Shown here piece by piece: positions 46,732 to 62,887 of a DNA stretch of 64,000 bases. The DNA comes from Candidatus Melainabacteria bacterium 17Bon1m. Its GTDB lineage: Bacteria > Cyanobacteriota > Vampirovibrionia > Obscuribacterales > Obscuribacteraceae. The first letter of the stretch is position 1. Every line of letters begins with the position of its first letter. The DNA lies in NCBI GenBank assembly GCA_032128875.1, contig JAVLKG010000011.1:32001-96000 (forward strand), in the 5' to 3' direction. A model generated the notes under the pieces. It saw nothing but the letters and a program-made list of their open reading frames with translations. It searched no databases and was not told where the DNA came from. The position numbers and the translations under genes are program-made.

Positions 46732-48177
46732 ATGCGCACCGCCTTCTTTGATTGCCCCTTCGGAGCCGCAGGAGACATGCTGCTCGGTGCGCTTGTTGAT
46801 GCCGGGTTGGACGTTGAAGCGTGGAAGGCTGAGCTTGAGAAAATCGATTTGCCGAGTGGAAGTTTTTCTGTTCGTCCTGAAAAACTGTTGCGCTGCGGTG
46901 TTCATTCCACGAAACTGCATGTGTTTCTGAGTGCCGACGCGGCGCATGAATATGATCATAAGCATGATCTCGCGCACGAGCACCATAACCATGATCACGG
47001 ACATGAGCACAGTGATGATCATGATCATAGTCACGGGCACGACCATAGTCACGGGCACGACCATAGTCATGGGCACGACCATAGTCATGGATATGATCGC
47101 GGGCACCATCACGACCACGAACAACACCTTCACCGCCATGATCATCCGCACCGCGGATTATCTGAAATTCTCAGAATTATTGAGAACTCGTCCATTCGAC
47201 CTGCTGCAAAAAAGCTCGCTGCAGATATCTTTACTCGACTGGGAATTGCTGAAGCGAAAGTTCATGGAGTTACACCAGAAGAGGTTCACTTCCATGAGGT
47301 CGGCGCTGTTGATGCAATCGTTGATATCGTCGGATTCGCCATCGGTTATGACTTGATGGCGATTGAACGCAGCATTGTGTCTGCTTTGCCGGTCGGAGGT
47401 GGAACCATCAGTAGCATGCACGGTGAATTTCCCGTCCCTGGTCCGGCGACCTTGGAGCTTCTTCGTGAGGCTCGCGCGCCTCTTGCTCAGACCTCGATTG
47501 ACTATGAATGCTTGACTCCCACGGGCGCTGCAATCTTAACGACCATTGCCGAGCGTTTTGGATCTCAGCCAGATATGACTGCTATTGATGCCATCGGATA
47601 TGGTGCGGGTTCACTAAACCCTGCTGGGCATCCAAATGTATGCCGCGTTGTTATTGGTCAATCAGTGCCTAAGAAGGGCAGCGAGAAAAACGCCCCATCA
47701 TCGCGCTATCGCAGCGAACTGATCGCTGTTGTTGAGTGTAATTTTGACGACCTATCTCCTCAAGTAATCAGCTATACATCTGAAAAATTGCTAGCTGAAG
47801 GCGCTCTCGATGTATTTGTTACGCCTTGCACAATGAAAAAGGGGCGTTCCGGTCATTTGCTATCTGTGCTTTGCAAAATGGAAGACGAACTCAGAGTCAA
47901 AGAAATTTTGCTTGCCGAAACCTCCACACTTGGTGTTCGCAGCAGCGTGACAGAACGTTTGATTGCCGAGCGCGAGTTGAAGAAAATTGACATCAAATCC
48001 GGTGAATCAGAGATGCAATCGGTTAGAGTCAAAATTGGCAAAGACCTTGACGGAAACGTTATAAACGTCCAGCCTGAATTCGAAGACTGTGCGTCAGTTG
48101 CCCGCGCGTCCGGCGCTCCTCTAAAAGAAGTTATCAGCACTGTCGTGTCAAAAGCTCGCAATGGTCGCGAGACTTAA
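46732..48177 (+). CDS. larC: Nickel-pincer cofactor nickel insertase LarC
   Basis: GAAGDMLLGAL, VHFHEVGAVDAIVDI, TPTGAAI, MKKGR, ETSTLGVR, PEFEDC; long His-rich insert. Confidence 0.95.
   Translation: MRTAFFDCPFGAAGDMLLGALVDAGLDVEAWKAELEKIDLPSGSFSVRPEKLLRCGVHSTKLHVFLSADAAHEYDHKHDLAHEHHNHDHGHEHSDDHDHSHGHDHSHGHDHSHGHDHSHGYDRGHHHDHEQHLHRHDHPHRGLSEILRIIENSSIRPAAKKLAADIFTRLGIAEAKVHGVTPEEVHFHEVGAVDAIVDIVGFAIGYDLMAIERSIVSALPVGGGTISSMHGEFPVPGPATLELLREARAPLAQTSIDYECLTPTGAAILTTIAERFGSQPDMTAIDAIGYGAGSLNPAGHPNVCRVVIGQSVPKKGSEKNAPSSRYRSELIAVVECNFDDLSPQVISYTSEKLLAEGALDVFVTPCTMKKGRSGHLLSVLCKMEDELRVKEILLAETSTLGVRSSVTERLIAERELKKIDIKSGESEMQSVRVKIGKDLDGNVINVQPEFEDCASVARASGAPLKEVISTVVSKARNGRET
47020..47091 (+). 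repeat. Four 18-bp tandem repeats encoding HDHSHG within larC
   Basis: CA(C/T)GA(C/T)CATAGTCA(C/T)GG(G/A) x4. Confidence 0.9.
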
Positions 48178-48186
48178 CTGGTGGCG

Positions 48187-50031
48187 TTATTGGACTAACT
48201 GTCCTTCTTTGTCGAACTGAACCTCATTCAGCTTCGAGCCGCTAAATTGTTCTATCGGTTTGCCTAAGTCCTTCCGTTTTAAAGGTTTTTGCTGTTCGGC
48301 AGGCGGAGGCTCCGAGCCCATATTTATTGCGGGTGGTGGTTCGTTCAGACGATAGTGCAATTGACGCGGTGGCGGCGGAACCGTGTCCATGAGGATAATG
48401 TTTTCCTCACTGCTCTTCGGTTTGGTTGGAGCTTGAAAGGCATCTTTCATTGAAATGGCATCATCGGTTTGGAAGGAGATAATGTCGATTTTAATTTTGC
48501 CGAAAGAGTTGGCGATCTTAATAGTGTCGTCATCGGAAATCTTCAAATGTCCGGCATCAACAAACACTTCATCCCACGTCGGGTCGATTGAAATCCATCG
48601 TTTGCCGTCATAAATTTCATTCCAAACATGCCAATACCACAGCGGTTGCGGCGACTGCGTGTACATTAACCCCGTGACTTCACGCGAAGGAACCCCCGCC
48701 GCGCGAGCGAGCGCATTGAATAGAAGTGCATGCTCCGTGCAGTCTCCTGCTTTGCGTTCTAAAACCTCCAAGGCTGTTGTCGAATTTCTGTTTACGTCTT
48801 TGCCGATTAGCTTGTAAACCCAGTCTTGAATGCACCGAGCCTTTTCCAATGGAGCCGTTTTACCCGCAGTAATCTCTTCTGCTTTTGCCTTAATCAGCTC
48901 ATCATCCGACTGCACCGTTGGCGTTGCTTTTAGATATTTCGCCAATTGTTCTTTCGTAATTGAATCTTTGTCGGCGGTCTGGAAGTCACGATTGACCATC
49001 AAAGTCGTGCCGCTATCGCCCTTTCCATCGGATGTTTGCAATTGACGCTGGGAATTCGGGAGGTTGTATTTTATTCCGGAGATTTTGAGCAAAACTTGCT
49101 TTAGTTTTCTCGGATCACCCATGCGAACATTCGCCGGCACAGACGATGCCTCGATAAGGTCTACGCCCACGGTGTCCAGTTTTCGCGCTGTTGACTCCTC
49201 TTCCAATCGGAAAGTAATCGGACCAATGTTGCCGCGTATCAGTCGACCGTTGTTATCGCAATCATATTGCGTGACTTCGTCATCTCTGTCATCGCGCTGC
49301 TCCAATGAGTGAATAGTCGTCGGAACACCGTTGAGGACGAGGTCTTTCCTGGCAATGTATTTGTAGTGAGAAGTGTGCTCGTTAAAATCGCCGCCGTTGA
49401 AATCAGACGATTTGTAGTCGAATTCGTCGCCGGCTTTAGGTGAAGAGCGCAGCCAGTCGCCGAGCTGTTTGTCATTGTCGAGGCTTGTTTTAGGCGGCTC
49501 TATGGTGATTGACTTCGCGCTCTTGCCGCCCGAACTTGTTTCTAAATACTTGTCGCCCTGCTTCATTACCGCACTGGTATAAGTGGCGCCGTCGTGCTCG
49601 TTGACTTGCTCTACGCTCGTCAATTCTCCGTTTCCATCCAGATTGAAAAGACGAGTAAGCGTGCTTTTGTCGATGAACGGTTTGCCGCGCTTGGTCACGT
49701 TGAAGAGGGTTTCCATCTTTTGCTCGAAGAAGTCGGATTCTCCACGCTTGATGATTTTGCTGGTGCCAATCAGGTATCCAACTTTCTTGCCTTCCAGATA
49801 AAGTCCGCACGCAAAACTCCCCTGTGCGTTCTCTGCGAACTTCCGCAGCGGGTTCTCGACTGGAATTGCTGGTTGACCAGACAGTGTTTCGCCGTCGATA
49901 TTGGGCTTTGGCGGCTCGCCTTTGGAGCAGGATGTGAGGATGAGCAAGAGTCCGCCCAGAGCGCCAGCAGATAAAACTGTTTTCATGCCGCTGCCGCGCC
50001 GAACCAATTTGAATTCCTCTCCCTTTTGCAA
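48187..50031 (-). CDS. Transglutaminase-like lipoprotein
   Basis: GDCTEHA, HVWNE, IDPTW catalytic triad; lipobox-like LILTSC (alternative start 49986). Confidence 0.88.
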   Translation of the reverse strand: MQKGEEFKLVRRGSGMKTVLSAGALGGLLLILTSCSKGEPPKPNIDGETLSGQPAIPVENPLRKFAENAQGSFACGLYLEGKKVGYLIGTSKIIKRGESDFFEQKMETLFNVTKRGKPFIDKSTLTRLFNLDGNGELTSVEQVNEHDGATYTSAVMKQGDKYLETSSGGKSAKSITIEPPKTSLDNDKQLGDWLRSSPKAGDEFDYKSSDFNGGDFNEHTSHYKYIARKDLVLNGVPTTIHSLEQRDDRDDEVTQYDCDNNGRLIRGNIGPITFRLEEESTARKLDTVGVDLIEASSVPANVRMGDPRKLKQVLLKISGIKYNLPNSQRQLQTSDGKGDSGTTLMVNRDFQTADKDSITKEQLAKYLKATPTVQSDDELIKAKAEEITAGKTAPLEKARCIQDWVYKLIGKDVNRNSTTALEVLERKAGDCTEHALLFNALARAAGVPSREVTGLMYTQSPQPLWYWHVWNEIYDGKRWISIDPTWDEVFVDAGHLKISDDDTIKIANSFGKIKIDIISFQTDDAISMKDAFQAPTKPKSSEENIILMDTVPPPPRQLHYRLNEPPPAINMGSEPPPAEQQKPLKRKDLGKPIEQFSGSKLNEVQFDKEGQLVQ

Positions 50032-50183
50032 ACGTCTACTCTGGCTGGTTTTTCAACAAAAAACGGAAAAGCTGGCCTTTATTAGTCGCCCATCTTAACC
50101 CGCTGACAGTCATCAATATATGTCTGAAAACCTACTGGACGTGGAATTAATGAAACAGTTATTGGCTCAGGTTTTTACTACGA

Positions 50184-51602
50184 ATGGCATCTAGCGAGAA
50201 GCCGGATTTCATCGAAATTGCAGAGAAAGAAACGCCCGTAAAGCTAACGACGGGGGGACTTTTTGGCGACGATGCTGCATCGCAGAGCGATGATGGCACT
50301 GCGCAGCGGCAGACCAGTCAGCCGATGCACCCCAGTTCTTCCGCCACCGATCGAAGTGCCGTCGCGGGCAACCCGTCAAATAGCCCAATCTCCGGCCTCA
50401 AACCACACCAGATAGTCAATGACGATGTCGCTAACCTCCGCGGGCAGTTGCCGCCTGGCTCCTCAATGAGCCAGCTGCCTGGTGGAACCATGTTTTTCAT
50501 CGTTTTGCTTGCCGCGGTCTGCTATTTCGGCAACCAAATTGACGAGATGCGCAACAGAACTCTTACAGATTTTGCTAAAGGCATCTCCATGAATGGCAGA
50601 GGTTTTGTGCAAACCGCTGGTGATCTTGGAGACACCTTGATACGTCATCATAACCTTGACGGAGCAAAAGCTGTCTACGATAAGGCTCTATTCGACTTAT
50701 CTTCCAGCGGATTGGATTCGGGGACTAAAGGTGCCTTTGTGCGACTTAAGTTGGTTGAAATCGCTTTTGCGAATGCCAACATCGAGTCATCCAGAGGTCG
50801 TAAAGCACAGGATAGTAGGACGCGGCGAGAAGCTTTCGATAGGTCATGGAAGTACGAGGCAGAGGCGAAAAGTCTGGCGAATCAAGCTTCAGAGATGCTC
50901 AGCAAGGATCGCGTCCATGTCAACACTGAAATACAATTTTTGCTTTCCAACGCTGGAAATAATTTTGAAGACTGGTTCGACTACAAAATGGCGATCAAGT
51001 TAAACGAGCAAGCTCTCAACTATTGGCCTAAGAGTTGGCGCAATGGTCGTTCTTACGTCGATGGTAAGCTCGGCTTCGAACATCTTATGGTCGGCAATTT
51101 TTTGACCGCAGAAGAGCATTTGAAAAACTCGCTCAACTGGACGATGAAAAACGGCTCCACTAGAGATAATGCTTGGAAGTTGTCGATTCTTGGTCGCTCG
51201 CAGATCGACTTGAAAAAGTATATGGATGCAGAAGTCAATTTGAACCGTGCCATCGAAATATGGGATGACCTGAACAAAAATGAGCGAAATCTTGATGTCG
51301 ATTATGCGCGAGTCTATACCGATCAAGGTCGAGTGAAAGCAGCATTGGGAAATAGCAATGAGGCTCTCAAGCTTTTCCAGAAGGCAGAGTCGCTATTGAA
51401 AGAGCATCCGGATTACACTTTCGACAGCATGCGAAATCATTTGGCCATGGCTAATTATTATCGCGACATTGGAAACTTTGCGCAGGCTCGGGATCTGTAT
51501 TCAGACATCATCGGGCGGATAGACCAAGGTGATGAAGGACCTGACCGAAAATCTGTTATGCGGGAATGGGATCTCTTGCGCCGTTTATCTGGAGGACGTT
51601 GA
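50184..51602 (+). CDS. Membrane-anchored TPR protein
   Basis: One TM (MFFIVLLAAVCYF) followed by TPR-like helices. Confidence 0.75.
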   Translation: MASSEKPDFIEIAEKETPVKLTTGGLFGDDAASQSDDGTAQRQTSQPMHPSSSATDRSAVAGNPSNSPISGLKPHQIVNDDVANLRGQLPPGSSMSQLPGGTMFFIVLLAAVCYFGNQIDEMRNRTLTDFAKGISMNGRGFVQTAGDLGDTLIRHHNLDGAKAVYDKALFDLSSSGLDSGTKGAFVRLKLVEIAFANANIESSRGRKAQDSRTRREAFDRSWKYEAEAKSLANQASEMLSKDRVHVNTEIQFLLSNAGNNFEDWFDYKMAIKLNEQALNYWPKSWRNGRSYVDGKLGFEHLMVGNFLTAEEHLKNSLNWTMKNGSTRDNAWKLSILGRSQIDLKKYMDAEVNLNRAIEIWDDLNKNERNLDVDYARVYTDQGRVKAALGNSNEALKLFQKAESLLKEHPDYTFDSMRNHLAMANYYRDIGNFAQARDLYSDIIGRIDQGDEGPDRKSVMREWDLLRRLSGGR

Positions 51603-53047
51603 TGGCTGAGCTAAATGTTATAGTTCCATATCGCTCAATGCCGTTGAAGGTAGTGTTCTCGTCCATGTGCGCGCTGTTTCCGCTATGGGCGGTTATTGCG
51701 CCCGCTATCATGGGATTTCTGATTGGACGTGCGTTTGCCTACCCAGGTGTAATTCCTCCGCATTTGGTGGCGATTGGTTGCACCACTTTACTCATGACTA
51801 TGTTGTCCGGTTTGGCACTGTCAGCGGTATCAGAGAACAACCGAATTCATATTTCTAAGGACGGGTTATGTTTTCCTCCTTTCTTTTTACCTAGATTGAA
51901 GTTTAAGCGAAATCGCAATTGGAGCGAGCTGCAAGCCGCCAATCTAGTGAAAGATGCCGGACCCTATGGCGGAACTCTTCTTCTGTCTTTCGATAGTGGA
52001 GAGCGTCTAAATCTTCCGCTTCGAAACATCAAAGAATCAGACGTTGAACAGCTTCTTCTGGGTGTTGAACTTTGGGGTATCAACTGCAATCGGTCGCCGG
52101 AATTGATTGAATACCAGCGCACTTTGCAAAATGAGACTCGAGGTGTTGGACAGAAAAGTTACACACAGATGTGGGAAGATGAGCTTTCTCGCAGATTTGC
52201 GCCCACCACTTTCGTTCCATTAGAGCCTGGAAGAAAGCTTCAGGGCGGCCGAATTGAAGTTGTAAGGCAACTAGCATTTGGTGGACTGTCTGCGATTTAT
52301 CTTGCACACCTGAATAAGACCGACCTTGTTGTTCTGAAAGAAGCCGTCGTTCACACAAAGGCTGATCCTGAGGCAAAGAGGCAGGCGGAGCAACATTTGG
52401 ACAGAGAAGCAAAAATTCTCTCGACGCTCGTGCATCCCAACATCGCCCGTGTGCTCGACCACTTTGTTGAAGATGACAGGCATTATTTGATTTTGGAATA
52501 TATCAGTGGACAAGATCTTCGTCAGTTCGTCAAGCAAAACGATGGACAGGAAGTTGGGAATGTCCTTGATTGGGCGATTGATGCAGCGACAATCTTGGCT
52601 TTCCTGCACGGTAATGAACCTCCGATCATCCATCGTGATCTGACTCCGGATAATCTTGTAGTGCGCAATGACGGCGCACTTATTCTTATAGATTTCGGGG
52701 CTGCTAATCAGTTTGTAGGATCTGCAACAGGAACGGTTGTTGGCAAACAGGCGTACATCGCGCCTGAGCAGTTGCGTGGAAAAACCGTCACGCAGAGCGA
52801 TTTATATAGTTTGGGTGGGACTATTTACTATTTGCTCACTGGGCGTGATCCGATGCCTTTGTCGATCAGTCATCCGAAAACTCTACGCCACGATACACCC
52901 GATGCGCTTGACGAACTTGTGGCAAGATTGAGCGCCTTCGAGCCTGAAGATCGTATACAGACAGCGGCGGAGGTGGTCGAGCAATTAATGCTCATAAGGG
53001 CGAGGTTTGATTCGCGTGGCGTTGTCGCAACAGGAGATGCGCTCTAA
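51602..53047 (+). CDS. Membrane-anchored Ser/Thr kinase (C-terminal kinase domain)
   Basis: Two N-terminal TMs; VLKE, HRDLTPDN, DFG, APE; TGATG coupling to the TPR gene. Confidence 0.92.
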   Translation: MAELNVIVPYRSMPLKVVFSSMCALFPLWAVIAPAIMGFLIGRAFAYPGVIPPHLVAIGCTTLLMTMLSGLALSAVSENNRIHISKDGLCFPPFFLPRLKFKRNRNWSELQAANLVKDAGPYGGTLLLSFDSGERLNLPLRNIKESDVEQLLLGVELWGINCNRSPELIEYQRTLQNETRGVGQKSYTQMWEDELSRRFAPTTFVPLEPGRKLQGGRIEVVRQLAFGGLSAIYLAHLNKTDLVVLKEAVVHTKADPEAKRQAEQHLDREAKILSTLVHPNIARVLDHFVEDDRHYLILEYISGQDLRQFVKQNDGQEVGNVLDWAIDAATILAFLHGNEPPIIHRDLTPDNLVVRNDGALILIDFGAANQFVGSATGTVVGKQAYIAPEQLRGKTVTQSDLYSLGGTIYYLLTGRDPMPLSISHPKTLRHDTPDALDELVARLSAFEPEDRIQTAAEVVEQLMLIRARFDSRGVVATGDAL

Positions 53048-55359
53048 TGGAAGAGCGGCAAGATCAGTTGGGTGGCGGACTTGCTGGACAATTTACAGCC
53101 AGAGGTCAGGGTTTTGAGACTAAAGAGCAGTCTGCCACTCCCGAGTTGAAGATTGCACCCGATGACGTAAGCGGCGAATTACTGCCTGCTCTGGCCGAGG
53201 AATCTCACTCCACAATTGGCGATATTGCTAAAGCACTGCCTTCCAAACGCACCAATTCCAGTAAAGGAGAAGGTTTCGAGCCTCTGGCGAAACTCCCACG
53301 TATTGGATTTGGCTTGCTGTTCACTATAGCCGCCAGCTTTATTTTGTTCCAATTTTCGAAGTATGGCGCTGCTGGAATGTCAACGACTATCTGGATGTCT
53401 ATTCCGGTAGTCATTTATTTCGCGCACTGTATGTTGCGCCTGAGTGATATCACCGGCATGAAGACAGGGACACGTCCTCCTCTTTCAGCATCCACAGTTA
53501 CCTTGATTTCTCTGATCACGCTTACTTGTTTTCCTGTATTCGGCGAGTTTTATCACTTTCCGAACAGACTGCTTGACCCGTTCTTCGCCGTTTGGATGCT
53601 TGCTCAATTCATATGGCCAGTGCTTATTTCACATGCGATTGAGCGCACGGCAAAGGTCCGCACGTTGGTATTGGGTTTGGTGGCGGCAGTGCCATTTTTT
53701 GCAGTGGCTGGACTTCCTGTCCTTTTTCACGAGTGGATGTTTTTCCTCCCCGTCTGGCTGATGTCACAGTTTGTCTGCGCTGTCTATCTGAGTGAGCGCT
53801 TGCGTCAGGTTTTCATAAATGACCTGAAAGTCAACATCGCAAAAATGACGGCATCGAAAGCGCAAGTTGTCGGAGCTACCAAAGATGATATCGTCGTGCG
53901 TTACAGACCGTTCTCGGCTGTAGAGCGTTGGATAGAGCAGCGTTTTACCGGAGGGAATTTGGTAAAAGGTGCTCAGTTGGTGGCGCTTTGGATTTCAGTT
54001 CCGCTAGTAATCGTGGCACTTTTGTTGGGCTTGACTTTTCTCGACATACTCGTCGGGACAAATACGTCGAGTAATCAGCATGTCGGCAAAGCCGCAGCCC
54101 AAGCCGCGGCTAATTTAAATACTAATTTTCTTCGAACCTTTCTTATTTTGGTCGGAGGGCTAGTTGGAGTTCCAGTCTTTGTCTACTTGCGAACTCCTAC
54201 ACACTTGTTGTTCAACAGGAGCGGTTTGCGCTTCTTATGGCGTCACAGCAGCAGACGTGGTCATGATGGTAAAGAGTTGAGTTGGAAAGATTTGCAGTCA
54301 ATTGAATTGGAACGTCCTCTTGGATCCACGCAGGCGCTTGACCAGTTTCTCTGCTTTAGAGCCCATGGCGAAAGAGTCGAAAAGATGAAACTGAGCGCCT
54401 TCGATACAATCGAGGATCGCGAGAAAATCCTAGCCATGATCCGCAGTTGGGCACCGAATGTTCCGCGCCCGCCCGAGGTTGAGCAGTGTTTGGAACCACC
54501 TGCGAATCACAGCTATACAGAAATGTGGCTGCAAGCACTCGCTGCTCCGCCTAAGCGCGAACGACTAAAACCGCTGATGGATGGCGGCACTGTGCAAGCC
54601 GGTAAGTACCGGGTGATCAATCAACTTGGAGTTGGTGGACAGGGTTCTGCCTATCTGTCAAAAGACAATATCAATGATCAAATAGTGGTGCTCAAAGAGT
54701 TTATTCTGCCTGTGCATGTTGATGTAAATGTGCGCAAGAGCGCGCTTGAGAGCTTTGAAAACGAAGCGCGAATTTTAAAGCAGATGGACAGCCCAAATGT
54801 CGTAAAGTTAATCGACTTCTTTGTTGAGGATCATCGCGCCTATTTGGTTCTTGAGCACATCGATGGAATGTCGCTCAGAGAGCTGGTTGAGGAGAATGGT
54901 GCGATGAAAGAACCGCAGGTGAAAGAACTTGCGCTTCAGATGTGTTCTATCCTTTCGTACTTGCATTCTTTGTCACCGCCGGTAGTGCACCGCGATTTCA
55001 CTCCGGACAATTTGATTTTGCAACGCGACGGCACTCTGAAACTCATCGATTTCAACGTGGCGCAACAAGTCGAAGCGACGGTTACAGGTACAGTGGTCGG
55101 CAAACATGCCTATCTGCCTCCTGAGCAGTTCCGCGGCATGCCAACCAGTCAGAGCGACATCTATGCTTGCGGGGCGACCCTGCACTTTTTGCTGACAGGC
55201 GCTGACCCGGAGCCTATTTCGCAATCGCATCCTGGTAAGCAGGTTGCCGGTTTGAGCAATGGCATCGACCACATCGTCGCTCATGCCACTCAGCTGGACA
55301 TTGGGCAGAGATACGACACGATTGGCGAAATGGAAAGCGACCTCAGGGTTTTGGTGTAG
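53047..55359 (+). CDS. Multi-pass membrane Ser/Thr kinase (C-terminal kinase domain)
   Basis: About 8 hydrophobic segments; GVGGQG, VLKE, HRDFTPDN, DFN, PPE; TAATG coupling. Confidence 0.92.
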   Translation: MEERQDQLGGGLAGQFTARGQGFETKEQSATPELKIAPDDVSGELLPALAEESHSTIGDIAKALPSKRTNSSKGEGFEPLAKLPRIGFGLLFTIAASFILFQFSKYGAAGMSTTIWMSIPVVIYFAHCMLRLSDITGMKTGTRPPLSASTVTLISLITLTCFPVFGEFYHFPNRLLDPFFAVWMLAQFIWPVLISHAIERTAKVRTLVLGLVAAVPFFAVAGLPVLFHEWMFFLPVWLMSQFVCAVYLSERLRQVFINDLKVNIAKMTASKAQVVGATKDDIVVRYRPFSAVERWIEQRFTGGNLVKGAQLVALWISVPLVIVALLLGLTFLDILVGTNTSSNQHVGKAAAQAAANLNTNFLRTFLILVGGLVGVPVFVYLRTPTHLLFNRSGLRFLWRHSSRRGHDGKELSWKDLQSIELERPLGSTQALDQFLCFRAHGERVEKMKLSAFDTIEDREKILAMIRSWAPNVPRPPEVEQCLEPPANHSYTEMWLQALAAPPKRERLKPLMDGGTVQAGKYRVINQLGVGGQGSAYLSKDNINDQIVVLKEFILPVHVDVNVRKSALESFENEARILKQMDSPNVVKLIDFFVEDHRAYLVLEHIDGMSLRELVEENGAMKEPQVKELALQMCSILSYLHSLSPPVVHRDFTPDNLILQRDGTLKLIDFNVAQQVEATVTGTVVGKHAYLPPEQFRGMPTSQSDIYACGATLHFLLTGADPEPISQSHPGKQVAGLSNGIDHIVAHATQLDIGQRYDTIGEMESDLRVLV

Positions 55360-55414: not shown

Positions 55415-55511
55415 TTTTACATGGGTGCACTTAGACTTCACGTCTTTTAGGGAATAATGGAATTATGCCGGGTGCGTACCGCGGGCATGATGCATCAGAG
55501 GACCCCAAACC

Positions 55512-56807
55512 ATGAAAAGCATGAAACGGTCGACCTTTGCAGTCTTAGTGTTGGCTCTTTCCCTGGGGGCGACCCAGGCTCGTGCCGGCGACTGCGACCA
55601 TGTCATCAATAGCAATGAGGCGCGCACCGAAAATGCCATTACGGCGTCGAAGATTCAATGGGAGACGTCGCTGGACAAGGCGAAAGCCAAGTCAGCAGCC
55701 AGTGGGAAGCCTATCCTCTGGGTCCATATGCTCGGAAACATCGACGGGTACACTTGATCCGCGGCAAATAGCTTGAGAGCCGGGTCGCTCTCGAAAGAAC
55801 CTGTATTGTCCAAACTGCGCGACCGCTTCGTCTGCGGATACCGCAATATCATGAAAGACCCGTATTCGGGCAACTCAGGCATTCACCCTGCAACCGGACC
55901 AGCCGTGACCACGACGAATGGCGCCGGACCTCGCAACCTCCAGCTTTTCATCATGGCTCAAGATGGCACTGTGGTGCACTGTATGCCGGGCTACTGGAAC
56001 CCCAATGACCTCAATGCCGAGCTGGACTTTGCCGACCGCTTGCACCGAGTCTGGATGGACCATTCGATAACCGAGCCGCAGAAGAAAGCACTGTTCGCGC
56101 AAGAACAATTGCGGCATATTCAGACTCACTCGTCGGATGTGGTCGCCCGAAGTGAGCTGCAGGGCTTCGACAAGCAATTCTGCTACAAAAACAACGTGAC
56201 GGATGCCATCGCTAACGCCAGTCTTATCCCGGCTGATTGGCACGATGTTCCGAAAGAAGCGTTCAAGACGACAGACGTTATCCTTCACGAGCGCATGGCG
56301 AAGCAGCCTTTCGTCAATTATTCGGCGTTCAACATAGCCAGTTTCGTCAATTACGGCAGCCATCACTACGATAAGCACGAGAAAGATCTCGAGCCTGAAA
56401 CCATGGCTAATATTCGCGCACACAATCTGCGCGATGTTCTACACGAGACAGGAGATCCTGTTCCCAAAGCTAAGGTCACCAACGTTGCAGCTTCAAAACC
56501 GGCGACAAGTTATCCCAACATGATCACGAAGCCGAAAGAAGTGGAGAAAACCATGGTCGACGGCTTCTGGGGCTATGCTCGCAAAGGCGACTGGGTGAAA
56601 GCCGACAGGGTGGCGAACTACATGTTGGAAAAGAGTCCAGGCAGCCCAACTGGTCACGAGATGAAAGCCGTGATCGCTTACGGCAAGGCGCGCTACGCCG
56701 AAGCCTACTTCCATTCGTACAATGCAATTCGCATGGGCTCGAAGCACCCGACTATCGTAGGCATCTATCAGAAATCACGCACGGCCGCGAGCAGCGCCGC
56801 GAAATAA
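55512..56807 (+). CDS. Candidate secreted selenoprotein, SelN/thioredoxin-like with C-terminal TPR-like region (in-frame TGA at 55755-55757)
   Basis: ORFs 55512-55757 and 55773-56807 share one frame separated only by one TGA; joined sequence GKPILWVHMLGNIDGYT-U-SAANSLRAGSL parallels the SelN redox region. Confidence 0.7.
55773..55794 (+). promoter_or_regulatory. Putative bacterial SECIS element
   Basis: TTGAGAGC-CGGGTC-GCTCTCGA: 8-bp stem (one G-U) with a G-rich loop beginning 23 nt after the UGA. Confidence 0.55.
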
Positions 56808-56810
56808 GTA

Positions 56811-56863
56811 GTAAGGGAGCCGCATGCGGCTCCCTGCCAGGGCGGCGCATGCGCCGCCCCTAC
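56811..56863. repeat. REP-like double palindrome
   Basis: GTAAGGGAGCCGCATGCGGCTCCCTG-CCA-GGGCGGCGCATGCGCCGCCCCTAC; same layout as 172-223; contains the clpB stop. Confidence 0.75.
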
Positions 56864-59574
56864 GGTGCGCTTGCGTGAGCTGCTTTCGTTTCTTCGACGT
56901 CTTCGCCTTCGCTGTCGCTGTCGCGTTCAGCATCGACTTCGGCAATCGGACTTTCGCCCTTGCGGAAGGTCAACCCGTGTCCATCTGGAGTGGATTCAAC
57001 CGTAATGGCGTCACCGTCCATGAAGTCGCCTTGCAGAATGTGCAGAGACAGTGGATTCTCGATTTCCTTTTGAATCAAACGCTTGAGCGGACGCGCACCG
57101 TACATAGGGTCGTAGCCGGTTTTGGCCAACCACTCCTCTGCGCCCTCGGTGGCGGTGAGATGCATTTTGCGGTCTGCAAGTCTGCGATTGAGATAATTCA
57201 ATTGGATGTCGACAATGCGCTTCAATTCTTCCGGCTTGAGTGCATGGAAGACCACAGTCTCGTCGATCCGGTTAAGGAATTCCGGTCTGAAGTGTTCTCT
57301 CAGCGATTCCAACACTTTCTCGCGCATCTGCGGATAGCTGTCGTCACCCGTGACGGCTGCTTTCATCTGGTAGTCGAGGATGTGTTGGCTGCCGATATTC
57401 GACGTCATAATAATGACGGTGTTTTTGAAATCGACATGCCGGCCACGCGAATCAGTCAAGTGTCCTTCATCGAGAACCTGCAGCAACACGTTGAAAACAT
57501 CAGCGTGCGCTTTTTCGATTTCATCGAACAACACGCAGGAATAGGCTCGACGGCGTACTGCTTCAGTGAGTTGTCCACCTTCGTCGTGTCCTATATATCC
57601 GGGCGGCGCGCCGATCAAACGCGCAACAGTGTGACGCTCTTGATACTCTGACATATCGATGCGCACCATTGCTTGTTCGTCATCGTAGAGAAACTCAGCG
57701 AGCGCTTTTGCGAGTTCGGTCTTACCAACACCGGTCGGTCCAAGGAAGAGGAAACTTCCGATTGGTCTGCCCGGATCTTTTAGACCCGCTCTCGCGCGTC
57801 TGACACCATTGGCGACAACTTCAATCGCTTCTTCCTGCCCGATAACGCGCTGATGAAGATGCTCTTCGAGGCGCAGCAATTTTTGTACTTCGCCTTCGAG
57901 AAGCTTCGTCACCGGTACTCCGGTCCATTTAGAAATGATCTCAGCGATATCTTCTTCGTCGACTTCTTCCTTGAGAAGTCTGCCACCTCTTTTGGTATTA
58001 AGCGGCGCCTCGGCTGATTTCAATTTTTGCTCTAATTCGCGCAGCTTGCCGTACTTGAGTTCTGCAGCCTTTTGCAAATCAGTGGCGCGTTCAGCTTGTT
58101 CGATCAAGAGTTTTGTCGCTTCGATATCGGCTTTGAGAGTTTGAATTCCGCTAATCGCTTCCTTCTCAGAGAGCCACTGAGCCTTCAGCCCATCTCCCTT
58201 TTCCTGAATGTTGGCGATTTCACGTTCTATTTTCTCGAGTCGTTCTTTCGATGCGTTGTCTTTTTCTTTCTTCAACGCCTCGCGCTCGATTTCTAATTGA
58301 ATTCTACGTCTCTCGAGCTCGTCGAGTTCGCTCGGCATGCTGTCGATTTCGATACGCATTCTTGCCGCTGCTTCGTCGACTAAGTCGATGGCTTTGTCCG
58401 GCAAAGAGCGATCGGTAATATAGCGATGCGAAAGAACGGCGGCACTGACGAGCGCGGAGTCCTTAATACGCACCCCGTGGTGCACTTCGTAACGTTCTTT
58501 GAGACCACGTAAAATCGAAATGGATTCTTCTACCGATGGTTCTTCAACCATGACGGTTTGGAATCGGCGTTCTAGCGCCGGATCTTTCTCGACGTGTTTT
58601 CTATATTCATCAACTGTGGTGGCGCCGATGCAATGCAATTCACCACGTGCCAGCGGTGGTTTCAACAAATTGCCTGCGTCCATAGAACCTTCACCGCTCG
58701 AACCCGCACCAACCACGGTGTGCAATTCGTCGATGAAGAGAATGATTTCACCTTCTGCTTCGATGACTTCCTTGAGTACGGCTTTTAGACGCTCTTCAAA
58801 TTCACCGCGATATTTGGCACCGGCAATGAGCGAGCCCATGTCCAGAGCGATGAGTTTTTTGTCTTTCAAACCTTCCGGCACGTCACCTTTGGTGATACGA
58901 ATTGCCAGTCCTTCGGCGATAGCTGTCTTACCAACACCAGGCTCTCCGACGAGCACCGGGTTGTTTTTGGTTCTTCTTGAAAGAACTTGCATGACCCGGC
59001 GAATCTCTTCGTCTCTTCCGATAACAGGGTCGAGCTTGCCTCGCGCTGCCGCTTCTGTCAGGTCTTTGCCGTATTTTGCCAACGCTTCGTAGGTGGCTTC
59101 GGGGTCCTGACTGGTGACGCGTTGCTTGCCGCGAATTTGAGTCAACACACTGAGAATGGCTTCTCGTGAAGCGCCATGATTTTTCAGAATGCTGCCTGCT
59201 TGCGATTTGATGTCATCGGCGATGGCGAGCAAAATATGCTCAACGCTAATGAATTCGTCTTTGAGTTTGTCGGCTTCACGGTTTGCCGACTCCAACAAGC
59301 GCATCAAAGCATGGGAAACATGAATCTCGTCCTTTTGGGTGGTTATGGCCGAACCCTTGGGTTGATTTTGCAAATATTTGCTGACGTCTTCAATAATTTC
59401 CTTTTGGTCAATATTGAGGCGCTCAAGGATTTTGCTCGCGACTCCTTCTTCCTGCTCCATTAAGGACAGCAGCACATGCTCAGGCGTTACCTGAGTGTGG
59501 CCAAAGCGCGCCAGTAGTGTCCTGCAATTAGTGATTGCTTCTTGCGCTTTATGCGTGAATTTTTCAAGGTTCAT
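56860..59574 (-). CDS. clpB: ATP-dependent chaperone ClpB
   Basis: Two AAA+ modules ([16 protein letters not shown]), long coiled-coil M domain, GARPLKR. Confidence 0.98.
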
Positions 59575-59896
59575 AAAAACACCCGTTGTTCAGAGTTTTC
59601 AAAAAACGCTGCGTTAGAAACCGCCTCAACGACGGTTGCCTTTGTTGGCCGCCATAATTTGATTATGGAAGCTTTACTTAAGGCACATTCATTTATCCAC
59701 AATTTATTTATAAGCCTGGATTTGCCGTACCTTGGCGGGGCTACAGACTGCGACCATTCCTTGTATTCAGATTGGCACACTTGGAAAGCTCCTCTGGATT
59801 ATTCCAAAGTGGATAAAAACCTCGTCAAATCCTGCTACAAACGGCACCTAGGGCTTAAGATATCTAGTTAACGAGTAGAGTTGCAAAGTTAATAGG

Positions 59897-60619
59897 ATGC
59901 AGGAGTTCGAGGAAGATTACTACGCGGTCCTCGGCGTTGAGGAATCCGCTTCGCAGGAGGAGATCCGCAAGGCCTATTTGGCGCTTGCTAAAAAACTCCA
60001 TCCTGATCGTTTTCCCAACGACCCTGAAAAGCGGTTGGTGGCGCAGAGCGAGTTCGCCAAAGTCTCGCGCGCGCATGACGTGGTCAGTGACGCTGAGCGG
60101 CGCGCTGAATACGATGCTGTTCGACTCCTTACACGTAAAAGACATTCTCAAAGCAACCTGAGCGCCATCAGTCCCGACATCACAGAGGACGCAGAAGGGC
60201 AGCCCGTGGATGTTCCGCTGAATTCGACCGGCAATTTCATGATTCCCGGGAACGAAACTGAAGAAGAGAACATCAATATCAAATGGGCGAATAAACATTT
60301 GAGCAGGGCGGACGACTTATTCCGCAGGCGAAATTACAAAGAAGCTGAAACCGCCCTCAAGGAAGCTATTAGATTGGTCCCCACGGACCCGCGGTATCAC
60401 AATAAGTTGGCTGAGGTCTACCTGGCTAGAGGCTGGAAAACACTTGCGATGACGGAAGTGCAGTCGGCTCTCAGAAACGATCCTAAAAACGCAGAAGCGA
60501 AGAATTTGGAAGCAAAAGTGAAAGCTCTTGCGCGCGAGAAGGCTCAAACTCAGCAAATGCAGAGACCTAAAAAGAGCTTTTTCGAGCAGCTCAAGGAAAT
60601 TCTCACTCGCAAGCTTTGA
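59897..60619 (+). CDS. J-domain co-chaperone with C-terminal TPR
   Basis: DYYAVLGV...LHPD; TPR helices; divergent from clpB. Confidence 0.92.
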   Translation: MQEFEEDYYAVLGVEESASQEEIRKAYLALAKKLHPDRFPNDPEKRLVAQSEFAKVSRAHDVVSDAERRAEYDAVRLLTRKRHSQSNLSAISPDITEDAEGQPVDVPLNSTGNFMIPGNETEEENINIKWANKHLSRADDLFRRRNYKEAETALKEAIRLVPTDPRYHNKLAEVYLARGWKTLAMTEVQSALRNDPKNAEAKNLEAKVKALAREKAQTQQMQRPKKSFFEQLKEILTRKL

Positions 60620-60682
60620 ACCTTGTTCGGAGAAATTTGTCCGATGTTGACCTTGCTCAATGCAAGCTTGCCCAAAGCAAGA

Positions 60683-62005
60683 ATGAACATAAATTGGCTG
60701 AATAGGCGTGCCGTCTCATTGTCGGTCGCATTTTCATTGGCGCTGGGATTCTCAGTGGCACCATTTTCGGTGCCTGCTGCAGTTTGTGCGCAAACCACCG
60801 GTAGTGCCGCCACTATTACTGATATAACGCCGGCGATTGAAGAAGAGAGTTCTGATGCCGGCGAGGCACAAAAGGTAAGTTCGGCTCAAGCGACCAAGGC
60901 TAGTGCTGATACAGCAAAAGCAAATAGTGAAATAACAAAAGCAAGTAGTGAAATAACGAAGCCAACCTCTGCAGCGGGCGCGAAAACCGGTGCCAGCAGC
61001 GCCAAAGACGTCGACGGTAAGCTGTTGAAAGGATCGGCTACGAAAGACGTCGATCGCTCTCCTATCCTTGATGGAGTTGTGCAAACGATACCACCGGGAG
61101 TGGACGTCAACCTTACTTTGAATTGCTTTCTGAATTCCGAACTCACACAAATCGGCGATGAATTATGTGCACGAGTATCAGTAGATGTGAAAGACGGCAG
61201 CAAAGTGATGTTGCCCGAGGGATGGTACATACGGGGGCTTGTCACCGATTCGGCTGGACGAAAAAGACATTCGCGCGACGGATATATCGAAGTGACATTC
61301 GATAAGCTCATTAGTCCAGATGGAGATATCGAACTCCAATTTCCCGCTAAGTTTTCTACCAAGGACAGCACACTCAAGTCTGTTGCCAAAGTCGCTATGA
61401 TCGATACCGCGATGGTCACAAAAGGCGCCATCAAGGGTGGTTTGCTCGGTCTCAAATACGGAGGCATTCCGGCAGCGGTTGCTTCTTACGGTATCGTCCC
61501 TGGTTCTACTGCTGCCGCCGGCGCAGCTTGGTATGGATACAAAGCTTTGCGCAGGCAGGGCGAGATTCGCAATTTTGCGCCAGGAGAAGTAATCAAATTG
61601 AAGACCGCAGGGCCGATCTCCTTGCCTGGTTTCAACGTAAGAGCTTTACCTTCGTATCAAAAGGCGCCACCGCTGCGCGGTGCCGTCATCAACGTCAACA
61701 AATGCTGGTTTATGCCGGACGAACGCGACAAGAAAGCCCAGTTGTTGAAGGTCGATTTCACCTTCGTCAATGAGACAAAGCGGACGTACAGCTTCCGTGA
61801 TTTCATCGTCACAACCAACCTGGGGCAGCTCTATTACCCTGAATTTGCGTCGCCCTCAAATTACACCCAGATGAAGAAGACGATCCCGCCAAACATGCAG
61901 CAGCGGGGGATTGTTACGTTTAACGTGGATAAAGGGAAGGGTGAGTACTATCTAATATTGATAGACGACTCCCGCAGAGAGCTTTCTCGGGCGTTGATTA
62001 AATAA
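60683..62005 (+). CDS. Secreted hypothetical protein (TrbI/VirB10-like beta region, C-terminal Ig-like domain)
   Basis: Signal peptide; LNSELTQIGD...LPEGWYIRG...IEVTFDKL; C-terminal VDFTFVNE...QRGIVTF. Confidence 0.65.
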   Translation: MNINWLNRRAVSLSVAFSLALGFSVAPFSVPAAVCAQTTGSAATITDITPAIEEESSDAGEAQKVSSAQATKASADTAKANSEITKASSEITKPTSAAGAKTGASSAKDVDGKLLKGSATKDVDRSPILDGVVQTIPPGVDVNLTLNCFLNSELTQIGDELCARVSVDVKDGSKVMLPEGWYIRGLVTDSAGRKRHSRDGYIEVTFDKLISPDGDIELQFPAKFSTKDSTLKSVAKVAMIDTAMVTKGAIKGGLLGLKYGGIPAAVASYGIVPGSTAAAGAAWYGYKALRRQGEIRNFAPGEVIKLKTAGPISLPGFNVRALPSYQKAPPLRGAVINVNKCWFMPDERDKKAQLLKVDFTFVNETKRTYSFRDFIVTTNLGQLYYPEFASPSNYTQMKKTIPPNMQQRGIVTFNVDKGKGEYYLILIDDSRRELSRALIK

Positions 62006-62197
62006 GCCCACGGTTTTCCCCCCTGATAACTGGATCTGAATCCTAAATCGTACTAATATACTTCTGTTGATTAGATCAAAACCTGATGTAATCGAGTTTA
62101 TATCCTCTATATAAAAAGAGGATCAGGATCAAGATCTATATAAGGTCTGGTTAGGCAGGTTTGCAGTTCTCTGGCAGGGAACCGCAGGGGGATATCG

Positions 62198-62887
62198 ATG
62201 AAAGCCCACTTGACTCAAATGCTGCAGTCTTTTCACGGCACTTCTCGCAACCGTCAGGTTGAAGGACAGCTGAGAAAGTTGCAGGGCCAGATTGTTCAGC
62301 TCGAGCGCGGCCTGAAAGAGAAAGAAAGAGAGATTGATAGGCTCCGCCATCAGCTCTCCAACTCTGATGCTCGCTTACAAGAGCTTATGGGTACCGATGT
62401 GCTGACGAATCTTCCGAATCGGCATGTCTTCAAAGAGCACCTCACACATTCGATGAAGCGCGCTTTGAGACTTGGATATTCGTTGTCTCTGATGCTGATA
62501 GATATCGATCACCTTCGCGATATCAATCTTCGTTATGGACACGAAGTAGGCGATGAAGTGCTGATTGAAGTCGGCAAAATACTGAAGAGTTCGGTGCGTG
62601 AGATCGACATGCCTGCCCGTTGGGGTGGCGAAGAGTTGGTCACCGTGCTGCACGAGACGGACGCCGAGGGCGCAATGGTAGTGGCAGAGAGAGTTCGCCG
62701 AAGAATCTCCATGCTGGAAGTGAAGGATCCTAAGACGGGCAAACCGATTAAGATCACCGCAACACTTGCAGTCGCCAGCTATCCACAGCACAGCAACGAT
62801 CCGCAAGGCTTGCTGGAAGCTGCATGCGAAGCGCTCATTGAGGCGAAAGATAAGGGCTGCAATAACGTCCTTACCGCTCAAACTTAA
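62198..62887 (+). CDS. Coiled-coil + GGDEF-domain diguanylate cyclase-like protein
   Basis: DVLTNLPNR, DIDH, YGHEVGD, REID I-site, RWGGEEL. Confidence 0.92.
   Translation: MKAHLTQMLQSFHGTSRNRQVEGQLRKLQGQIVQLERGLKEKEREIDRLRHQLSNSDARLQELMGTDVLTNLPNRHVFKEHLTHSMKRALRLGYSLSLMLIDIDHLRDINLRYGHEVGDEVLIEVGKILKSSVREIDMPARWGGEELVTVLHETDAEGAMVVAERVRRRISMLEVKDPKTGKPIKITATLAVASYPQHSNDPQGLLEAACEALIEAKDKGCNNVLTAQT

Follow-up and report, generated by a model that had tools for sequence, protein, structure and literature searches.

A probable selenoprotein of the thioredoxin fold, split at an in-frame TGA by gene callers, in Obscuribacterales

Among described prokaryotic selenoproteins, the VPGUxxT family (NF041382/NF041383; entered as "hypothetical protein OS_HP5" in PMC13188914, Table 1) is bacterial and thioredoxin-like, has a length of about 290–350 residues, and contains a single selenocysteine (Sec) near the start of helix 1. 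The DsbD-gamma, Thioredoxin_7, and Thioredox_DsbH (DUF255) domains are periplasmic and adopt the thioredoxin fold, in which the active-site residue occupies the N-terminal end of helix 1. Escherichia coli YbbN (CnoX) is a cytoplasmic protein in which a thioredoxin fold with an SxxC site is followed by tetratricopeptide repeats (TPR). Eukaryotic selenoprotein N (SelN, SELENON) is presented in PMC12839072 as a thioredoxin-like protein of the endoplasmic reticulum lumen with Sec in an SCUG motif, and Arg466, four residues past Sec462, as a disease site. Here we analyse a 64,000-nucleotide stretch of Candidatus Melainabacteria bacterium 17Bon1m (GCA_032128875.1, contig JAVLKG010000011.1, positions 32,001 to 96,000), referred to as the window. 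Comparison of sequences indicates that window positions 55512–56807 very probably encode a genuine selenoprotein of the thioredoxin fold, in which the TGA at 55755–55757 would specify Sec82. The family appears to be undescribed. No entry among the 119 prokaryotic selenoprotein families that a May 2026 review compiles with domain identifiers (PMC13188914, Table 1) fits the motif or architecture of the window protein. A full-text literature search returned no selenoprotein paper for Melainabacteria, Obscuribacter, or Vampirovibrionia, although the supplements of surveys may list the family among unnamed candidates; the lineage is not mentioned in the accessible portions of Peng et al. 2016 and of the deep-Sep paper.

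VPGUxxT is the only named selenoprotein family that gives any signal with the window protein, at E 0.11 over residues 47–107. Because the match has 12.1 bits where 275 are required, the window protein is not a member of that family; its motif is GYT-U-SAAN, not VPG-U-xx-T, and VPGUxxT lacks its helical subdomain and TPR tail. The VPGUxxT model matches a second candidate selenoprotein of the same genome (the C6 paralogue, described below) and the cysteine-containing relative P0135 at E 5e-4 to 5e-3, and no true VPGUxxT member was found in the genome (G000). In its predicted structure, the window protein shares with DsbD-gamma, Thioredoxin_7, and DsbH the thioredoxin fold and the placement of the active-site residue where helix 1 begins, but it has a single Sec in place of CxxC, no conserved second cysteine, and about 90 extra conserved helical residues. 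The gathering scores of PF13899 and PF03190 are not reached, and the cysteine-containing relatives score 14–23.5 bits against a cut-off of 27. YbbN has the same order of domains, and its structure (3qou) ranks first in Foldseek with the full-length model (E 2e-4), but the TM-score is low (0.18–0.26) with a root-mean-square deviation of 23.8, and the window protein has a putative signal peptide and Sec. The resemblance to YbbN is one of architecture only.

A first-pass annotation of the window, prepared from the sequence, had described the redox motif as SelN-like, a description that is not established. The window protein has threonine, not cysteine, before Sec (Y-T-U-S); since T-U-S-A is invariant in the family and asparagine occupies position U+4, the site is not the SCUG site of SelN. 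The protein has neither an EF-hand (no Pfam match) nor a type II membrane anchor, its putative selenocysteine insertion sequence (SECIS) is bacterial and lies within the coding region, and profile searches of the PDB returned no SelN chain. No longer fused relatives, SelN-length proteins included, were found, which is weak evidence by the search's own account. The gene can be divided into the following features:

55512..56807, plus strand: the whole putative selenoprotein gene, 431 codons with UGA-Sec as codon 82; relatives are similar over the full length across the TGA.
55498..55502, plus strand: GAGGA, resembling a Shine-Dalgarno site, 9 nt 5' of ATG 55512, identified from the sequence.
55512..55586, plus strand: signal-peptide-like N-terminus, residues 1–25 (...TQARA|GD); all aligned relatives have a hydrophobic N-terminus.
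55644..56129, plus strand: predicted thioredoxin-fold domain, residues 45–206; Sec caps the N-terminal end of helix 1, and a TTNGAGP loop comes before strand 3.
55755..55757, plus strand: UGA, probable selenocysteine U82; one column in 29/29 and 79/80 loci, with cysteine in distant homologues.
55773..55794, plus strand: SECIS-like hairpin, with stem 55773–55780, loop CGGGUC 55781–55786, and stem 55787–55794.
56130..56396, plus strand: conserved helical subdomain, residues 207–295, with invariant S214, Q217, F219, D220, D255, H259, and R261.
56397..56531, plus strand: variable linker, approximately residues 296–340, of low confidence (predicted local distance difference test, pLDDT, below 50 at 280–343 in the full-length model) and poorly aligned.
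56532..56804, plus strand: C-terminal TPR-like helical domain, residues 341–431, found in this orthologue group and absent from shorter paralogues.
56810..56864, no strand assigned (.): double GC-rich palindrome of 55 nt, a dispersed repeat and possible terminator.

The open reading frame (ORF) of 81 codons at 55512–55757 starts with the signal-peptide-like sequence MKSMKRSTFAVLVLALSLGATQARA, passes through ...KPILWVHMLGNIDGYT directly before the TGA, and ends as ...HMLGNIDGYT at TGA 55755–55757. The same frame is then open until TAA 56805–56807, giving 431 residues if the TGA is read as U82. A second ORF (genetic code table 11) begins at TTG 55773, within the 5' arm of the hairpin, and the public gene-caller product P0002, of 318 residues, starts even later, at Met114. 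Export of the 431-residue protein is plausible from its N-terminal signal-like stretch. The first-pass annotation had read the locus as a secreted, Sec-type read-through gene that gene callers split, in a cyanobacteria-related lineage. The in-frame TGA, the 431-residue frame, the hairpin, and the TTG start in its stem are all present in the window, the split is evident from P0002 and from truncated database homologues, and homologue names together with taxonomy place the organism in Obscuribacterales/Melainabacteria. Its further expectations, namely Sec machinery in the genome, TGA or cysteine in the same column of homologues with similarity on both sides, and conservation of the hairpin, were borne out by the comparisons that follow.

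The conservation of the TGA was determined by a six-frame search, with stops read through, of 101 genomes of the same order, Obscuribacterales. Family matches are present in 88 of these genomes and in 27 of 35 genera, with one to six matches per genome. Among the 150 matches listed, 149 contain an in-frame TGA: 144 have exactly one TGA and no other stop, and five have one TGA and another stop. The sole listed match without a TGA begins at residue 82, and its N-terminal part is in another frame. The motif around the TGA in relatives is HMLGxxDGxT-U-SA[AG]NSLRA, and the TGA occupies a single alignment column in all 29 loci aligned. When one genome per species was scanned, 79 of 80 loci had T-U-S-A-[AG]-N-S-[LM]-R, the exception being the same frameshifted contig. 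Neither TAA nor TAG occurs in the Sec column of the 79 loci, and no sense codon was found there inside the order, among the genomes searched. The family similarity spans both sides of the TGA over the full length of the relatives; in 32 sequences with less than 72% mutual identity, residues W50, W70, G75, and T81 are invariant upstream of it and S83, A84, N86, S87, R89, S92, L93, and S94 downstream.

Contigs from other studies confirm the sequence of the locus. An independent contig from X7 is identical at the locus, and a contig from run X9, of a close strain, has 14 listed differences over 55461–56471, none of them within 55634–55892, and retains the TGA and hairpin unchanged. A lone in-frame stop in one metagenome-assembled genome would look like a pseudogene or a one-base error of assembly or sequencing; given that the TGA is present in 88 genomes and 27 genera as well as in the contigs from X7 and X9, and that the protein is strongly conserved on either side of it, we consider either origin to be so improbable as to be negligible. 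When 200 further genomes of the phylum were sampled, no close relatives were found, including 0 of 73 in a sampled family of the same class, and 11 of the 200 gave only weak matches of 30–41 bits without stops. In a search of 5.8 billion proteins, none of the 120 listed homologues covers more than 80% of the joined protein, and all are without its N-terminus; those with names are entered as "hypothetical protein" from Cyanobacteria bacterium, Candidatus Obscuribacter, or Candidatus Obscuribacterales.

A profile of the catalytic region, searched against 1.84 billion representative proteins, gave 831 matches at E ≤ 0.001. Most of the best 150 matches listed begin just past the Sec column, which is a truncation artefact, and we examined the 15 of these 150 representatives whose match starts at profile position 8 or earlier, upstream of the Sec column. 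Nine of these 15 full-length representatives have cysteine in the column: P0135 (E 8e-78), P0165, P0171, P0239, P0248, P0251, P0253, P0254, and P0264. Cysteine is the usual counterpart of Sec. The cysteine-containing relatives are single uninterrupted proteins, and Planctomycetota names appear among the records clustered with P0165 and with P0171. These cysteine forms emerged only from the exhaustive profile search; a word-indexed search with residues 40–165 gave 21 matches with at most 62% cover, none of them over the Sec column.

The gene-caller annotation, with its 318-residue P0002, the truncated homologues, and the listed ORFs, agrees with another arrangement, in which the TGA is a true stop between an exported peptide of 81 residues and a separate protein initiated at TTG 55773 or ATG 55851. 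Inspection of the sequence found no purine-rich site like the GAGGA of ATG 55512 ahead of either downstream start. The interruption is always TGA, in one column of an invariant motif, with TAA and TAG never found in the 79 loci, and it would separate strand 1 from helix 1 within one thioredoxin fold that is modelled with confidence and that the cysteine-containing relatives encode without a break. We therefore regard a true stop as very improbable.

The hairpin 3' of the UGA consists of TTGAGAGC (55773–55780), the loop CGGGTC (55781–55786), and GCTCTCGA (55787–55794), with the loop beginning 23 nt past the A of the TGA. Bacterial SECIS elements are stem-loops located immediately 3' of the UGA whose apical loop contains G and U, and the hairpin conforms to this description. 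When the U of the UGA is numbered 1, the conserved core stem, 55775–55780 paired with 55787–55792, corresponds to positions 21–26 and 33–38, and the loop (CGKGUC) to positions 27–32. In 78 unique sequences, 443 of 468 stem cells are paired, compared with 158–305 after a shift of the 3' partner by one to three columns. The stem has at least 5 bp in 76 of the 78 sequences and at least 6 bp in 69. In a null model of 3000 synonymous recodings of the window peptide, drawn from the codon usage of the family, the observed 8-bp stem arises in eight recodings and a stem of at least 6 bp in 176. Codon choice is constrained at the same place: the four-fold sites of the loop are invariant, with Ala+8 as GCC in 75/75 (background 0.39) and position +9 as GGG in 17/17 or GTG in 61/61 (backgrounds 0.10 and 0.26), Arg+7 is AGR in 75/78 (background 0.24), and Ser+10 is TCG in 70/78 (background 0.18), while the third positions of Thr-1, Ser+12, and Pro+15 vary freely over all four bases. 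Three rarer codon sets keep the hairpin in other letters, as in CGG/AGC/CTG, which gives ACGGGC-CGTGA-GCCTGT, and GAC/TCC, which gives GAGGGA-CGTG-TCCCTT. The hairpin is not a by-product of the encoded peptide.

A hairpin of the same kind accompanies the UGA of the C6 gene, which looks unrelated to the window gene. Its sequence is CGAGAAC-CGUGUU-GUUCUCG, at the same distance from the UGA, with the G25-C34 pair changed to A-U, and the C6 orthologues examined have CGAGAAC-CGUGYU-GUUCUCG at this distance in 12/12 loci. A scan of the genome for an open frame, TGA, and such a hairpin found four places only: the window gene, the C4 paralogue, the C6 gene, and the C9 site.

The genome (7.55 Mb in 35 contigs, 93% complete) contains the components of Sec synthesis and insertion. 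Its tRNA-Sec has 67.5 bits (cut-off 47) and is identified by ARAGORN as SeC with anticodon tca, and selB (285.8 bits), selA (496.8 bits), and selD (370.2 bits) are all above curated cut-offs. Judging from these genes, the organism is able to read UGA as Sec. The coding sequences also indicate that TGA is not a general sense codon in this genome: table-11 ORFs of 770 and 904 residues adjoin the gene in the window, the selA, selB, and selD matches are without internal stops, and 14 of 28 complete relatives of the window gene seem to terminate at TGA. A formate dehydrogenase selenoprotein was not found in the genome, the best TIGR01553 match having 82 bits against a cut-off of 814 and no internal stops. 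Because no FdhA selenoprotein was found and selD has no internal stop, the Sec machinery is seemingly kept for the thioredoxin-like families. Across the order, 78 of the 88 genomes with the family have selA (in 77 the match exceeds the cut-off, and in one it is partial, at the end of a contig), and eight genomes, 71–96% complete with six above 90%, have neither selA nor the family. This co-occurrence is the pattern predicted for a Sec-dependent gene, with statistics that are inflated by kinship.

Several observations weigh against the decoding of the UGA as Sec or limit the evidence for it. Ten of the 88 family-positive genomes, 64–93% complete (G073 93%), are without a convincing selA, and five of the 13 family-negative genomes do have selA. 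The sequences compared are related, so the counts for the TGA and for the hairpin are not counts of independent events. The overall folding energy of the hairpin region is ordinary (z = 0.80), and 1462 of the 3000 synonymous variants fold at least as well; because the energy is not significant, the place-specific stem and synonymous-site tests were used. Changes in the main-register stem are one-sided (G-C to G-U), and two-sided changes are confined to the rarer codon sets and the distant C6 paralogue. The structural models were built with cysteine replacing Sec, and the chemistry proposed below comes from fold and conservation alone. Four RNA-labelled runs carry the locus on contigs of 16–20 kb with flat depth, and these cannot show transcription. 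Among the 15 distant representatives, the Sec column contains serine in P0132, whose loop residues are altered too and which may be an inactive paralogue, and Ala/Pro-type residues in the degenerate sites of P0192, P0199, and P0200. It contains tryptophan in two, P0030 and P0133, both full-length database proteins.

The two tryptophan entries are what would be expected if near-cognate or suppressor decoding inserted one of the standard residues at the UGA (Trp, Cys, or Gly), producing the whole protein without Sec. They are most simply, and probably, the result of a gene caller whose table translates TGA as Trp. Decoding as a standard amino acid is moreover opposed by the complete Sec machinery and its co-occurrence with the family, by the hairpin with an invariant loop at SECIS distance both here and in a second TGA-containing family, and by cysteine in the distant homologues. 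We give this possibility little credence, and consider Sec to be very probably the residue encoded at position 82.

The catalytic region was modelled from 46 sequences, including the cysteine-containing relatives, with a pLDDT of 94.9 and a predicted TM-score of 0.91, whereas the full-length model, built from 14 sequences only, has a pLDDT of 68. In the confident model and its VIA-align matches, residues 45–206 form a thioredoxin fold of the DsbD-gamma/DsbH type. Sec82 immediately precedes helix 1 as its N-cap, and the TTNGAGP140 loop precedes strand 3 in the model. In the thioredoxin fold, these are the positions of the nucleophilic cysteine and of the cis-proline loop. There is no cysteine at U+3 and the motif is T-U-S-A-[AG]-N, so the site is not a CxxC dithiol. 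Cysteines 108 and 157 are near-invariant in the Sec family and are not kept in the cysteine-containing relatives. No structural match is available for the helical subdomain of residues 207–295, which the rows of the fold search do not cover. The full-length model has five helices over residues 341–430, and the family profile matches TPR proteins in the PDB over profile positions 353–429 (best 4cgu, E 2.3e-7), while the single sequence has no Pfam TPR match. Matches to paralogues end near residue 291–298, and the TPR tail is missing from the shorter copies, such as C4.

The joined protein matches no Pfam family at E ≤ 1 and reaches no Pfam or NCBIfam threshold, and searches of the PDB with the catalytic part found weak thioredoxin-like rows at best, none in one search and 3ira at E 0.025 in another. 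In the ESM Atlas, P0002 gave only leads under 0.9, to TPR and thioredoxin-like clusters.

A mechanism can be proposed for the gene and its product. SelB and tRNA-Sec would decode UGA 55755–55757 as selenocysteine, and the signal would be the coding-region SECIS hairpin, with a 6–8-bp stem and the loop CGGGUC occupying positions +27 to +32 relative to the UGA, whose U is numbered 1. After cleavage of the signal peptide, the mature protein of about 406 residues would comprise the thioredoxin-like domain, the helical subdomain, and the TPR tail. Since no resolving cysteine is conserved across the superfamily, Sec82, at the helix 1 N-cap where thioredoxin has its nucleophilic cysteine, may act as a single redox nucleophile, assisted by the invariant T81, N86, R89, and H125 and by the TTNGAGP loop. 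Such a one-Sec mechanism would need an outside thiol, because there is no cysteine at U+3 and C108 and C157 are lost in the cysteine-containing relatives. The protein would then probably be an enzyme of the reductase or peroxidase type, periplasmic or extracytoplasmic, with an external thiol partner to regenerate it, and the TPR tail may recruit a protein partner or substrate. We propose one-Sec reductase or peroxidase chemistry tentatively, as a possibility with somewhat less than an even chance of being correct.

The C6 gene, outside the window at C6:272795-274135 of the genome (L133:1296-2636), represents a second candidate selenoprotein family. Its product of 447 residues is predicted to be exported and thioredoxin-like, has the motif ...MMGHLDDRFC-U-TNARLARTVLF, is 22% identical to the window protein, and reaches the threshold of no Pfam or NCBIfam family. 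The C6-type family is present in 41 of the 101 genomes of the order, with one TGA in nearly all matches. Two matches, G025:C1:709202-710023 and G054:C23:278521-279336, have no internal stop and start at query residue 138–139, upstream of Sec; they may be cysteine forms within the order. The C4 paralogue (contig C4, approximately 97536-98606; L134:1037-2104) encodes 356 residues with the motif HMLGKIDGAT-U-SAGNSLRAVSLS, a signal peptide, and a basic C-terminus, without the TPR tail. At the C9 site, on the minus strand of contig C9 with the TGA at 109196, the frame ...WWQKNL-U-ANLTIVLGRV... is open on both sides, and a hairpin of at least 5 bp has a CGKGTY loop 27 nt downstream of the TGA. This site could be a chance occurrence or a further selenoprotein.

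The neighbouring genes, at 46732–55359 and 56860–62887, encode a LarC-like nickel insertion protein, a transglutaminase-like protein, a TPR protein, two Ser/Thr kinases (493 and 770 residues), ClpB (convergent with the selenoprotein gene), a DnaJ-TPR protein, a DUF4352 protein, and a GGDEF cyclase. This neighbourhood suggests no redox partner and offers no functional clue, and a promoter scan found no promoter-like site. Directly after the stop codon, between the selenoprotein gene and the convergent clpB, the palindromes GGGAGCCGCATGCGGCTCCC and GGGCGGCGCATGCGCCGCCC form the 55-nt element at 56810–56864. The element is a dispersed repeat with 71 blastn matches in the genome, 44 of them of at least 45 nt. 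Depth spikes and numerous foreign contigs occur at its position, and metagenome contigs contain it in many other contexts. It resembles a repetitive extragenic palindrome (REP)-like intergenic element or a bidirectional terminator; the terminator scan left the palindromes uncalled because they have no T run.

The window family and the C6-type sister family, which has a Cys-Sec site, may be prokaryotic relatives of eukaryotic SelN through its thioredoxin-like domain, but we consider this kinship rather unlikely. If it were true, a bacterial counterpart of SelN-type selenoenzymes would exist in the non-photosynthetic sister lineage of Cyanobacteria, these lineages would keep the whole Sec machinery mainly for such exported enzymes, and the family would offer a tractable bacterial model in which the substrate chemistry of a human disease protein becomes testable. 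The public records of the family among the matches listed are truncated entries named "hypothetical protein", and because each genome with the family has one to six matches, the annotation of Obscuribacterales misses several genes per genome. The window gene represents an apparent new family beside the 119 compiled in PMC13188914 (Table 1). Only the Sec form of the family was found in the genomes of the order that were searched, and the family was not found in eight of the genomes that lack selA, which suggests that Sec is not easily replaced here. The hairpin common to two different genes provides a putative lineage-specific SECIS consensus that could guide the search for the remainder of the selenoproteome.

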